From: Escherichia coli
Lineage (GTDB): Bacteria; Pseudomonadota; Gammaproteobacteria; Enterobacterales; Enterobacteriaceae
Length of the DNA stretch: 64,000 nucleotides
Assembly (NCBI RefSeq): GCF_003019035.1
Contig: NZ_CP027447.1
Reading direction: 5' to 3' (one strand)
The notes beneath the pieces are model-generated. The model was not told the origin of the DNA, searched no databases, and was given only the letters and a program-made list of their open reading frames with translations. A program made the position numbers and the translations under genes. Below, one piece after another: positions 7,951 through 11,098 of this stretch (positions are counted from its first letter, which is position 1; each line of letters opens with the position of its first letter).

Positions 7951-8262
7951 TCATTAATGCGCCTGCGGGCGCATTAATCACTTCTTTTACCCCCCGTTAA
8001 TTAACTTCGGCAAAAATATATTTCTTACTGAATAAATATCGACGATATTTATTATATATATTTAGTGAATATTTACTCATCATTTATTGATTATAAACAT
8101 GTACAACCTGGCGCACAAATTTAATATTTAATTTCTGACTTTATTTCAAGTTGTGATAAACATAGACAAGTTGTCAGACAGGTTAACCAATTTGTCGCAC
8201 AAAGCACTGATAAGCACAATTAGATATCAACCAATTTCCATCCTTCAACAGGGAGTTTTTTT

Positions 8263-9249
8263 ATGAAAATGAGGTCATTTACCCGCTCATTAGTCTGCGC
8301 ATCCTTGCTGGCTCTGGTTAGCACTGGCGTAAACGCCGCAGAAAAAGTGACGTTAAAGTTAGCACACAACCTGGAAAGAAGTCATGTTGTACATCAGAGT
8401 TTTGAAGAGCTGGCGAAAGAGGTAAAACAGCTGTCAAAAGGTAATATGGTGATCCGTATTTATCCCAGCAGCCAGATGGGTAATGCGCGAGAAACTATGG
8501 AATTGTTGCAAAATGGCGCACTGGATATGACCAAAGGTTCCGCCAGTGATCTGGAGTCTTTTGATAATATTTATGCTATCTATAATTTGCCGTTCTTATT
8601 TAAAGATCAGGCGCACTTCAACAAAGTTGTTTTTGGTGAAGTTGGTAAAGAAATTATGGACTCAACAAAAGACAAAGGCTTTTTTGCTTTATCAGCTTAT
8701 GTAGCGGGTACACGCAGTTTCTATGCGAAAAAACCGATTACTAAGCCAGAAGATCTTAAAGGGCTGAAAATTCGTGTTCAGCCAAGCCCGACCACCATCA
8801 AAATGATTGAACTGATGGGTGGCTCACCCACTCCAATTTCATTTGGCGAAGTTTATACTGCGATGCAGCAAGGTGTAGTCGATGGCGCAGAAAATAACGT
8901 GCCTTCCTGGGTGCAGACTCGACATATCGAAATTGCCAAAGTCTTTTCTGAAGATGAACATGCCTCAATTCCTGACTTTTTGGTTATCTCCACCAAAACA
9001 TGGAATAAATTAACCCCAGAACAGCAACAAATCCTCGAAACAGCGGCGAAGAAATCCGAAGCTTATCAACAAAAATTGTGGGAAAAAATTGACGCTGACA
9101 CACGTGCTCAGGCGAAAGCTATGGGTGGTGAAATCGTTAAGGTTGATAAAGCCCCATTCCGTGCCGCAGTTCAACCTCTGTTTGACGACTTCAAAAAAGA
9201 TCCAAAACAAGCTGCTTTGTTAGAGAAATTCGATAACGCTGCTCAATAA
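8263..9249 (+). CDS. TRAP transporter periplasmic solute-binding protein (DctP family)
   Basis: 328-aa ORF with signal peptide and DctP-like composition; followed by DctQ- and DctM-like genes. Confidence 0.8.
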   Translation: MKMRSFTRSLVCASLLALVSTGVNAAEKVTLKLAHNLERSHVVHQSFEELAKEVKQLSKGNMVIRIYPSSQMGNARETMELLQNGALDMTKGSASDLESFDNIYAIYNLPFLFKDQAHFNKVVFGEVGKEIMDSTKDKGFFALSAYVAGTRSFYAKKPITKPEDLKGLKIRVQPSPTTIKMIELMGGSPTPISFGEVYTAMQQGVVDGAENNVPSWVQTRHIEIAKVFSEDEHASIPDFLVISTKTWNKLTPEQQQILETAAKKSEAYQQKLWEKIDADTRAQAKAMGGEIVKVDKAPFRAAVQPLFDDFKKDPKQAALLEKFDNAAQ

Positions 9250-9284
9250 TATTTCGGGCCAGTCTCTGGCCCTGATTTTCCAGG

Positions 9285-9797
9285 ATGCTTACAATGATAT
9301 TTAACCGCCTGAAACTTGCGGTAGACCGCGTCATTGCCGCGTTTTCTGTCGCCGTAATGCTTGCTCTGGTTGTATGCGTAGTCTGGCAAGTATTTAGCCG
9401 CTACATACTTAACCAGCCAAGTACATTAACCGATGAGCTGGCACGCTTTTTGATGATCTGGGTAGGATTATTAGGTGCTGCATATACCGTCGGCGCGCAG
9501 AGACATCTCTCTATCGATTTATTTGCTCTCGCCCTGAATAAGCGCAAGCAATTACTTCTTAGTATAGTCATTAACATTCTCATTTTAGGTTTTGCCGGTT
9601 CGGTCATTGTGACTGGTGGCCTGAAATTAATTGATAAAACGCTGGCAACATCACAAGTATCTGCCGCGATGCAAATACCGATGGGATACGTATATATCAT
9701 TCTGCCATTAAGTGGAGTGGTGATGATGTTTTATGCCTTGTGTTTTATTAATCAAAGCATTCAACAACTGAAACAACCTGCGCAGGAGGCCAGTTAA
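9285..9797 (+). CDS. TRAP transporter small permease (DctQ family)
   Basis: 170-aa hydrophobic ORF between the SBP and large permease. Confidence 0.7.
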   Translation: MLTMIFNRLKLAVDRVIAAFSVAVMLALVVCVVWQVFSRYILNQPSTLTDELARFLMIWVGLLGAAYTVGAQRHLSIDLFALALNKRKQLLLSIVINILILGFAGSVIVTGGLKLIDKTLATSQVSAAMQIPMGYVYIILPLSGVVMMFYALCFINQSIQQLKQPAQEAS

Positions 9798-11098
9798 TGG
9801 ATAGTTATATCGCGCTTACACTATTTGGCTGTTTTTTTGTGCTGGTCTTTATTGGTGTGCCCATTTCGTTCTCAATCGGTATTGCCACTGTAGCTTCAAT
9901 GCTGTTGATGTTTCCCTGGGATATCGCGGCAATCACTGTTTCGCAACGACTGGCTAATGGACTGGATAACTTTGCCCTGTTGGCAATCCCCTTTTTCATC
10001 TTTGCCGGAACGCTGATGAACAGCGGCGGTATTGCGATACGTTTGATTAACCTCGCCCAGGTAATGGTTGGCCGCGTTCCTGGTTCGCTTGGTCATGTGA
10101 ACGTCCTGGCGAATATGATGTTTGGTTCCATTTCTGGTTCAGCCGTTGCGGCAGCTGCTGCCGTTGGTGGCACACTGAATCCCATTCAGACCAAAGAAGG
10201 TTATGATCCGGCATTTTCTACCGCTGTAAACGTCTCATCTTGTATTACTGGATTACTGATACCGCCCTCAAACGTGTTAATTGTGTTTTCCCTGACAGCT
10301 GGCGGCGTTTCTGTAGCATCGCTATTTATGGCGGGATATTTGCCAGGGATCTTAATGGGTCTCGCGGTAATGATAGTCTGCGGCATTATTGCTAAACGCC
10401 GTGGCTACCCGCTTTCAGAAAGAGCAACCTTTGCTCAGGCCTGTAAAGCGTTTCTGGATGCCTTACCAAGTTTGCTTCTGGTGTTCATTGTGATGGGCGG
10501 CATTCTGGGCGGCATTTTTACCGCAACTGAAGCGTCTGCGATTGCCGTTGTCTACACATTTATTCTCTCGGTGCTGATTTACCGGGAAGTAAAATGGCGC
10601 GATTTACCCAAACTGATTCTGGAATCGGTTGTTACCACTTCGATTGTATTACTGTTGATCGGTTTTTCCGTGGGCATGTCCTGGGCAATGACCAATGCTG
10701 ATATTCCTTATATGATCAGCGACGCGTTGATGGGGATTTCTGATAACCCACTGGTCATATTGCTGCTGATTAATATCGTCTTATTAATTGTCGGCATCTT
10801 TATGGACATGACACCGGCTGTACTAATCTTCACACCAATCTTCTTGCCGATTGCACAAGAGCTGGGAATGGACCCTGTACATTTCGGTATTATGATGGTG
10901 GCTAACCTTTGTATTGGGCTGTTAACACCGCCGGTGGGTAGTGCGCTATTTGTTGGTTGTTCTATTTCAGGTGTGAAGATTCAACATTTGATCAAACCAT
11001 TGCTGCCATTTTATGCCGCATTGTTAATCGCGTTGATGATGATCACTTACATCCCGCAAATATCCTTGTTCATTCCACAGCTACTAGGGCTAATGTAA
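9797..11098 (+). CDS. TRAP transporter large permease (DctM family)
   Basis: 433-aa polytopic membrane ORF; start overlaps the DctQ stop. Confidence 0.8.
   Translation: MDSYIALTLFGCFFVLVFIGVPISFSIGIATVASMLLMFPWDIAAITVSQRLANGLDNFALLAIPFFIFAGTLMNSGGIAIRLINLAQVMVGRVPGSLGHVNVLANMMFGSISGSAVAAAAAVGGTLNPIQTKEGYDPAFSTAVNVSSCITGLLIPPSNVLIVFSLTAGGVSVASLFMAGYLPGILMGLAVMIVCGIIAKRRGYPLSERATFAQACKAFLDALPSLLLVFIVMGGILGGIFTATEASAIAVVYTFILSVLIYREVKWRDLPKLILESVVTTSIVLLLIGFSVGMSWAMTNADIPYMISDALMGISDNPLVILLLINIVLLIVGIFMDMTPAVLIFTPIFLPIAQELGMDPVHFGIMMVANLCIGLLTPPVGSALFVGCSISGVKIQHLIKPLLPFYAALLIALMMITYIPQISLFIPQLLGLM

Follow-up and report, generated by a model that had tools for sequence, protein, structure and literature searches.

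A TRAP transporter operon between hemW and yggM of Escherichia coli: a probable ancestral hexuronate-type uptake system lost in K-12-type strains

In Escherichia coli K-12, the core gene hemW is followed directly by yggM. In the stretch of E. coli DNA analysed here (64,000 nucleotides of contig NZ_CP027447.1, assembly GCF_003019035.1, called the window below), three genes named dctP, dctQ and dctM lie between the two and encode a transporter of the family called tripartite ATP-independent periplasmic (TRAP). This arrangement raises two questions. The first is whether the operon was inserted into the interval or was lost from K-12. The second is what the transporter carries, and under which control.

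The explanation that accounts best for the observations as a whole, and that is considered moderately probable, is that the operon is an ancestral, intact TRAP system with a hexuronate-type ligand and ExuR-type control, which was lost in K-12-type E. coli. In the literature searched, no paper deals with this operon beside hemW in E. coli. Family, pathway and regulator are already well known; this member, and the assignment of a predicted function and regulator to it, are new. The genes of the locus are the following.

6814..7950, + strand: hemW, core gene on the left flank (open reading frame (ORF) list, Pfam, alignment with K-12)
8263..9249, + strand: dctP, periplasmic substrate-binding protein, 328 amino acids (ORF list, Pfam, NCBIfam)
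9294..9797, + strand: dctQ, small membrane subunit, 167 amino acids from the RefSeq start (ORF list, Pfam)
9797..11098, + strand: dctM, large membrane (transport) subunit, 433 amino acids (ORF list, Pfam, NCBIfam)
11154..12161, - strand: yggM (DUF1202), right flank (ORF list, Pfam, alignment with K-12)

The gap between hemW and yggM measures 3,203 bp in the window and holds three ORFs, all on the same strand. The stop codon of dctQ overlaps the start of dctM (9797), and an alternative in-frame ATG at 9285 would lengthen DctQ to 170 residues. The GC content is 31.4% in the leader, 44.6% in the operon and 48.2% in the window. According to the ORF list, neither a regulator gene nor an ATP-binding cassette (ABC) ATPase is present in the interval. 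The initial annotation had described a DctP/Q/M-like TRAP operon with a 310-bp AT-rich upstream region and no accompanying regulator gene. This description agrees with the Pfam and NCBIfam matches and with a leader of 312 bp. The same annotation had named no substrate; operators and orthologue neighbourhoods narrow it to a hexuronate-type ligand, without singling out one compound.

Predicted control and substrate

Evidence on the control of the operon comes from its leader. The 220 bp upstream of dctP were aligned for 28 loci and the window. Two operator boxes are conserved in the 28 loci, with the consensus AaAGwTGTCnGACAAC ... ATGTCATACAG and a centre-to-centre distance of 21 bp. They are kept even in genera whose operon lies away from hemW (Buttiauxella, Edwardsiella, Mangrovibacter and Enterobacillus). 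A TGTGA and a GCGCACAAAA element are conserved upstream of the boxes in the same alignment. The window carries the following leader features.

7951..8262, + strand: AT-rich leader or regulatory region
7953..7978, + strand: hemW terminator hairpin, core GCGCCTGCGGGCGC, followed by a T-run; kept in operon-bearing Salmonella and Citrobacter, absent from the K-12-type spacer
8093..8122, + strand: degenerate copy of the operator pair with GCGCACAAA, upstream of box 1 by 63 bp and of box 2 by 84 bp; GCGCACAAA is kept in Enterobacteriaceae, and the copy may be an auxiliary operator
8153..8157, + strand: TGTGA, conserved across genera, just 5' of box 1; possibly a CRP half-site
8167..8185, + strand: operator box 1, ExuR type, core TTGTCAGACAG at 8171-8181; conserved in every genus and unchanged among six E. 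coli alleles
8181..8193, + strand: GGTTAACCAATTT, a 13-nt identity with the K-12 uxuA operator region (UxuR-type box), between boxes 1 and 2; E. coli-specific
8187..8205, + strand: operator box 2, core TTGTCGCACAA at 8192-8202, 21 bp centre-to-centre from box 1; ATGTCATACAG in other genera
8249..8256, + strand: Shine-Dalgarno region of dctP, CAGGGAGT; GGAG is kept in every genus

The same type of box is found at the hexuronate promoters of K-12. These are the uxaC<>exuT region (AAAGTTGTATGACAAGTTA), the region upstream of uxaB (GAATTGGTACGACAGGTTA and AAAGATGTCAGACAACT) and the region upstream of exuR (AAAGTGGTATAACAAATAT). In about 1 Mb of DNA, the 13-mer AGWTGTMNGACAA, which is the consensus of the other genera, occurs only at TRAP promoters and in the uxaC<>exuT and uxaB upstream regions of K-12. 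When the 64-kb window is scored with a matrix made from the hexuronate promoters of K-12, box 1 comes out first. Since AT-rich flanks score spuriously, the two position-weight matrices are noisy, and exact-pattern counts were relied on instead.

The sequence between the boxes, GGTTAACCAATTT, was first a candidate for an ExuR box of the whole family. This was rejected because it is not conserved outside Escherichia, whereas the two flanking boxes are, and it is kept as an extra site specific to E. coli. It shares 13 identical nucleotides with the uxuA operator region, while a control sequence of about 97 kb gave one exact match of at least 13 nt. It is also close to the published UxuR site AAATTGGTATACCAATTT (PMC8092373).

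Together, the two conserved operators and the third, E. coli-specific one would subject the promoter to ExuR and possibly UxuR, core hexuronate repressors of the GntR family. The most likely regulator of the operon, as judged from these sites, is the core ExuR, possibly with UxuR, acting in trans. No regulator gene would be needed in cis. In a scan of 5,426 complete E. coli genomes, uxaC-exuT-exuR is present in all but four (5,422). In about 1,900 of these 5,422 genomes the match is split at the exuT/exuR spacer (8523-8652 of K-12 locus L052; such numbers are locus handles of this analysis), and exuR lies more than about 2.5 kb from exuT, which implies a common insertion there.

A second line of evidence is provided by gene neighbourhoods. 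Orthologues with 60% identity in Aeromonas rivuli, A. molluscorum and Pantoea sp. IMH lie within uxaA-uxaB-uxaC <> dctPQM-exuR clusters, whose products compare with those of K-12 as follows.

Cluster regulator: 64-74% identical to ExuR, 46-50% to UxuR
Cluster UxaA: 68-78% identical to UxaA
Cluster UxaB: 65-70% identical to UxaB
Cluster UxaC: 77-80% identical to UxaC

No exuT was found within 10 kb of these clusters. There, dctPQM stands between uxaC and exuR, the position that exuT occupies in the uxaCA-exuT-exuR locus of K-12. In Mobilicoccus, genes resembling uxaC and uxuB are found near a homologue of 40% identity. The neighbourhoods in Edwardsiella and Buttiauxella hold no sugar-acid catabolic genes and no GntR-family regulator. 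It is because of the conserved ExuR/UxuR-type operators, together with the hexuronate-gene neighbourhoods, that a hexuronate-type ligand and ExuR control in trans are proposed.

Solved structures bear on the ligand itself. By phmmer, the best PDB matches of DctP are 4OVR, 4N15/4LN5, 4MHF/4MIJ, 4X8R, 4N91, 4N8Y and 4XFE (E 4e-68 to 2e-58), compared with about 1e-40 for SiaP and about 1e-33 for C4-dicarboxylate DctP structures in the same search. An AlphaFold2 model of DctP (pLDDT 75.6) recovers the same EFI set with Foldseek at TM-scores of 0.79-0.87, and the EFI hexuronate set makes up the top 8-9 matches by both methods. Beyond 4N91 and 4MHF, its members are presumably hexuronate binders too, going by the titles of the entries. 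Apre_1383 (4N91) binds glucuronate, and Bpro_3107 (4MHF) binds glucuronate/galacturonate (PMC7660916).

The contact residues can be followed through Salmonella STM3169, which binds D-glucuronate with a Kd of 0.17-0.25 µM. In STM3169 and Apre_1383 the ligand is contacted by Asn35, Gln36, Glu74, Arg150, Arg170, Asn210 and Asp237 (PMC7660916). Five of these seven residues are kept in DctP as N36, R151, R171, N211 and D238. Arg171 is invariant in the DctP alignment A1 and aligns with the carboxylate-binding arginine of solved homologues (SiaP Arg147, STM3169 Arg170). The predicted ligand is most likely a hexuronate, namely D-galacturonate and/or D-glucuronate, or a close relative. Transport is perhaps biased to the galacturonate branch.

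Several observations weigh against the explanation given at the outset. With one mismatch allowed, the box-1 pattern is found once in the window where 0.8 occurrences are expected, and is thus no rarer than chance; the weight of the box comes from its conservation across genera and its matches in K-12 promoters, not from counts in the window. A simple scan of the leader found no sigma-70 promoter. No catabolic genes stand beside the operon in E. coli and in most genera. The GC content of the operon, overall and at third codon positions (GC3), is lower than that of its flanks, which an old foreign origin would also fit. Representatives of other Escherichia species were not recovered in the genome scan, which took one genome per species, and loss followed by re-gain within the genus Escherichia is conceivable. 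Finally, Gln36 and Glu74 of STM3169 correspond to Leu37 and Ala75 in DctP. These replacements are fixed across the clade (Pro75 in Aeromonas and Pantoea, which share Leu37), and all aligned solved hexuronate binders have Glu at position 75. Because of Leu37 and Ala75 the pocket of DctP differs, and the ligand may not be plain glucuronate.

This last point leads to an alternative that is possible, if doubtful: the transporter is linked to ExuR as proposed but takes up a sugar acid other than D-glucuronate or D-galacturonate, and would extend rather than duplicate import by ExuT. This acid could be a keto-uronate (tagaturonate or fructuronate), a uronate that is modified or unsaturated, or a different hexuronate epimer. 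Besides the two altered contacts, this is favoured by some Salmonella and some E. coli having both the hemW-linked and the STM3169-type system, which suggests that one does not simply duplicate the other. On the other hand, DctP keeps the carboxylate clamp and three more of the contact residues, and Bpro_3107 binds both hexuronates while also using alternative residues (PMC7660916). Moreover, in the uxaCBA-exuR clusters the orthologue is the only transporter, as fits the entry substrate of the pathway.

A more specific proposal is offered as speculation only. The hemW-linked clade, with Leu37 and Ala/Pro75, might recognise a uronate that ExuT and the STM3169-type system handle poorly: galacturonate at nanomolar-to-micromolar concentrations, a keto-uronate, or some unsaturated or modified uronate derived from host glycans or pectin. 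If so, presence and absence of the operon in E. coli (kept in ST131 and enterohaemorrhagic O111-type strains, lost in K-12) would mark a niche difference in sugar-acid scavenging, and the ExuR operator architecture would include paired and upstream auxiliary boxes.

In Rfam, nothing in the region scores above threshold. The Salmonella small RNA candidate STnc130 gives a sub-threshold match at 7947-8073 on the - strand (26 bits, E = 0.6; gathering score 55), which overlaps both the AT-rich leader and the hemW terminator.

Age of the operon and its loss in E. coli

The initial annotation had seen the operon as accessory cargo inserted into a core interval, given that hemW is directly followed by yggM in K-12, and had added that presence in K-12 and all E. 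coli would make it core. In K-12 MG1655 yggM does follow hemW directly, across a 154-bp spacer of repetitive extragenic palindromic (REP)-type sequences, and homology between the window and MG1655 breaks exactly at the stop codons of hemW and yggM. Among the complete E. coli genomes, the interval is matched in 1,492, with at least 80% of it covered in 1,460, while 3,927 have a short spacer joining the ends of both genes (64, 68, 154 or about 242 bp in sampled rows). The operon is thus carried by about 27% of genomes and lost in about 72%, K-12 included. This excludes core status and upholds the term accessory within E. coli. The word inserted does not stand.

Among the strains that carry it are JJ1886 (ST131), EH2252 and one of serotype O111:H8. 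The E. coli matches fall at 1,508 places, all chromosomal except one, and the operon was at the hemW-yggM site in every carrier locus inspected.

Evidence for an ancestral position is provided by other genera. With one genome scanned per species, 44 related loci were found. The adjacency of hemW and dctPQM was observed in Citrobacter (4 species), Pseudocitrobacter, Kluyvera (6), Klebsiella (7, including K. pneumoniae), Phytobacter and one further enterobacterium, in Pluralibacter with ansB interposed, and in a minority of Salmonella enterica. The synteny spans eight genera. The Salmonella orthologue of the window DctP is 90% identical, and its gene also lies between hemW and yggM. Likewise, the hemW terminator hairpin (GCGCCTGCGGGCGC) just 3' of hemW is common to the operon loci of E. 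coli, Salmonella and Citrobacter.

Divergence tells the same story as the flanks. Nucleotide identity to outgroup orthologues is 76-82% for dctP and dctM, and 78-83% for yggS, yggT, rdgB, hemW, ansB and yggN. No sampled genus is closer to the operon than 82%. Within E. coli, operon alleles differ by 1-2.4%, which matches the divergence of the flanks.

That the operon is horizontally acquired cargo, inserted at a core junction in some E. coli lineages, is improbable in this light. Its absence from K-12 and most complete genomes would fit such an event, as would the low GC of operon and leader. The window and Escherichia sp. MOD1-EC7003 are 97.5-99.2% identical in the operon and 94-97% in the flanks, a hint of haplotype spread by recombination. 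Against this stand the adjacency in eight genera, the shared terminator hairpin, outgroup divergence equal to that of neighbouring core genes, and allelic divergence of species age within E. coli. Nor was any trace of mobility seen: the ORFs and boundaries of the interval hold no integrase, transposase or tRNA, and at 7951/11153 there are no target-site duplications and no direct or inverted terminal repeats beyond short matches at chance level.

Because of the shared synteny, the flank-like divergence and the lack of mobility genes and boundary repeats, the operon is therefore taken as ancestral at this site, and the K-12-type haplotype as a loss rather than the state before a recent insertion. 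An origin outside the lineage is not supported. The operon would have stood beside hemW since before Escherichia, Salmonella, Citrobacter and Klebsiella split. In about 72% of E. coli the whole interval would later have been replaced by a short array of REP palindromes, a mechanism that we infer. The left REP junction and the 3' end of hemW are the same in all four of the examined spacers that lack the operon. This suggests one old deletion or replacement, with the number of REP copies varying later.

A block of genes missing from K-12 is, in other words, not necessarily an insertion. Here K-12 represents the derived, deleted state, with a REP-filled scar at what looks like a core junction.

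Several observations concern the flanking genes. The last 45 nt of hemW (7906-7950) have 13 synonymous differences from the K-12 allele; they encode the same amino acids and are AT-richer in the window. The 3' end of hemW in MOD1-EC7003 is a mosaic of window-type and K-12-type versions. Overall, hemW is unusually polymorphic, with 94-98% identity between strains. Across the family, the operon is the stable part of the hemW site, and yggM and ansB are variable. From genus to genus, yggM is very poorly conserved, with 63% identity in Salmonella and 34-38% in Klebsiella and Kluyvera, and in many cases it is absent; ansB is absent from the hemW-adjacent position in Klebsiella and Kluyvera.

Others concern individual operon copies. 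In E. coli TUM10828 (L056:3001-4301) the allele diverges from the window, with 88.6% identity in the leader, 94.3% in dctP and 97-98% in dctQ/dctM, which suggests that a segment was imported. Strain BS-04 (L055:5814-6514) has a 701-bp hemW-yggM spacer with a K-12-type right junction, an annotated frameshifted pseudogene of a TRAP small permease, and two dctQ fragments (98% and 89% identical) between long poly-A/poly-G runs. Because of these runs it is probably an assembly artefact, not a clean deletion intermediate, and it was set aside as deletion evidence. Three contigs assigned to other bacteria (L008 and L009, metagenome-assembled genomes named Collinsella sp. and Bacillota bacterium, and L049, an Alicyclobacillaceae assembly) match the E. 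coli hemW-TRAP locus at 99-100% identity and are almost certainly mis-binned or contaminating E. coli DNA.

Family assignment and retained function

The three genes encode a TRAP transporter of the DctP type (TC 2.A.56), with three components and no ATPase. Pfam matches are PF03480 for DctP (2e-84), PF04290 for DctQ (2e-30) and PF06808 for DctM (2e-121), and the NCBIfam TRAP subfamily models TIGR00787 (DctP) and TIGR00786 (DctM) score above their cut-offs. The window proteins are identical to TRAP subunits annotated in RefSeq. DctP begins with what reads as a Sec-type signal peptide, MKMRSFTRSLVCASLLALVSTGVNA followed by AEK, which has a K/R n-region, a hydrophobic core and a V-N-A|A cleavage site.

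The family suggests how such a system would work. Secreted DctP would capture an acidic sugar in the periplasm, Arg171 pairing with the carboxylate of the ligand, and would hand it to the membrane unit of DctQ and DctM. Import would then proceed by ion-coupled secondary transport, and uptake by dctPQM would be dependent on the binding protein and driven by an ion gradient, as family membership implies. PMC9352664 and PMC9971032 describe structures and assays for SiaPQM. In the cell, the operon would feed the core UxaC/UxaB/UxaA and UxuA/UxuB pathway and would be a high-affinity alternative to the carrier ExuT, which belongs to the major facilitator superfamily (MFS).

It is highly improbable that the operon encodes a generic C4-dicarboxylate (DctPQM), sialic-acid (SiaPQM) or 2,3-diketo-L-gulonate (YiaMNO) transporter. 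The family names DctP, DctQ and DctM, the automatic name “C4-dicarboxylate ABC transporter substrate-binding protein” and weak NCBIfam matches to the YiaM and YiaN models point in that direction. These equivalog scores, however, are far below their cut-offs (37.2 against 260 and 296 against 800), the hexuronate cluster matches at 4e-68 where SiaP and C4-dicarboxylate DctP reach 1e-40 and 1e-33, and both the operators and the orthologue neighbourhoods are hexuronate-specific.

The operon is an intact TRAP uptake system that is selectively maintained. The reading frames of dctP, dctQ and dctM are all full length. The ratio of nonsynonymous to synonymous substitution rates (dN/dS) among E. coli operon alleles is 0-0.24, mostly below 0.08, and the DctP protein is identical between strains whose dctP genes carry 19 synonymous differences. 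That the operon is a decaying remnant, now functionless in E. coli, as loss from most of the species and occasional disrupted copies (an IS3 insertion in O111:H8 08-4455; only partial matches in 32 of the 1,492 matching genomes) might suggest, is scarcely credible given these frames, these ratios, the identical DctP of divergent strains, and operators reported as invariant across six E. coli alleles, the exception being a single core change in box 2 of TUM10828, towards the consensus of the other genera, with box 1 unchanged there. In 08-4455 (NZ_CP077540.1), it is an IS3-family transposase gene that interrupts dctM, a recent inactivation of the operon.

Two further features complete the transcription unit.

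9256..9272, + strand: GC-rich hairpin and T-run in the gap from dctP to dctQ; may act as a partial terminator or stabilise the mRNA, favouring expression of the binding protein
11106..11138, no strand assigned: perfect hairpin with a 12-bp stem, TTTGCCGGATAA...TTATCCGGCAAA, and a T-run; predicted bidirectional terminator for dctM and the convergent yggM

With this analysis, a transporter that has only a generic name in RefSeq gains a predicted function and a predicted regulator. It occurs in more than a quarter of complete E. coli genomes, including the pandemic ST131. Sugar acids are recognised carbon sources in the gut and the host, and the Salmonella paralogue STM3169 is a virulence factor. 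For these reasons, a second, differently tuned high-affinity hexuronate system could matter for colonisation.

Comparison with known systems

One of the closest known systems is found in Salmonella Typhimurium. STM3169-STM3171 is a D-glucuronate TRAP transporter (Herman et al. 2020, PMC7660916; Haneda et al. 2010, PMC3022708). Like the window operon, it is an enterobacterial three-gene dctPQM without linked regulator or catabolic genes. STM3169 falls in the same hexuronate cluster, and the equivalents of its Arg150, Arg170, Asn210, Asn35 and Asp237 are conserved in DctP, whereas its Gln36 and Glu74 are replaced by Leu and Ala. The comparison is based on 184 residues of an STM3169-like protein, over which DctP is 47% identical, and on a reconstructed N-terminus. 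This N-terminus, MKNTRSFTTSAVLLAGC... (from the primers of PMC3022708 and fragment P0122), is unrelated to that of DctP. Control differs as well: STM3169 is reported to be controlled by SsrB and ppGpp, while the window operon has ExuR-type operators.

The possibility that the window DctP is the orthologue of STM3169 was rejected. The mass given in PMC7660916 does not fit, the primer-derived N-terminus differs, and Salmonella has a 90%-identical gene at hemW-yggM. By sequence and position, the window operon is a paralogue of STM3169, not its orthologue.

STM3169-like genes also occur in E. coli, and their location differs from that of the window operon. Some strains carry a second TRAP island of this kind beside ygiQ/yqhH (L060-L062; dctP at L060:9001-9270), preceded by genes for a GntR/FCD regulator, Mannitol_dh, ADH and Ldh_2, whereas the window operon stands at hemW-yggM. 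On all three contigs, the 270-nt dctP call reaches the contig end or comes within a few bases of it. The ygiQ island looks like region “GR21” of strain BEN2908 (PMC12928451).

The EFI proteins 4OVR (Xanthobacter), 4N15/4LN5 (Burkholderia Bamb_6123), 4MHF/4MIJ (Polaromonas Bpro_3107), 4N91 (Anaerococcus Apre_1383), 4X8R, 4N8Y and 4XFE share the arginine pair and the binding-site asparagine with DctP. They are only 36-39% identical to it, and have Glu where the DctP clade has Ala75 and Glu where it has Asp238. Another known system is GaaPQM of Agrobacterium tumefaciens, given as a galacturonate TRAP transporter in PMC5812351, which cites Zhao and Binns 2016. It too belongs to the TRAP family and has been assigned the uptake of galacturonate, but its host is of another bacterial class.

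Within E. coli, the counterpart of the operon is ExuT of the exu regulon (uxaCA-exuT-exuR). The two have the same predicted substrate class and the same predicted repressor, but they belong to unrelated families. ExuT is a single-component MFS proton symporter and is core in E. coli, whereas dctPQM is a tripartite, binding-protein-dependent TRAP system carried by about 27% of genomes.

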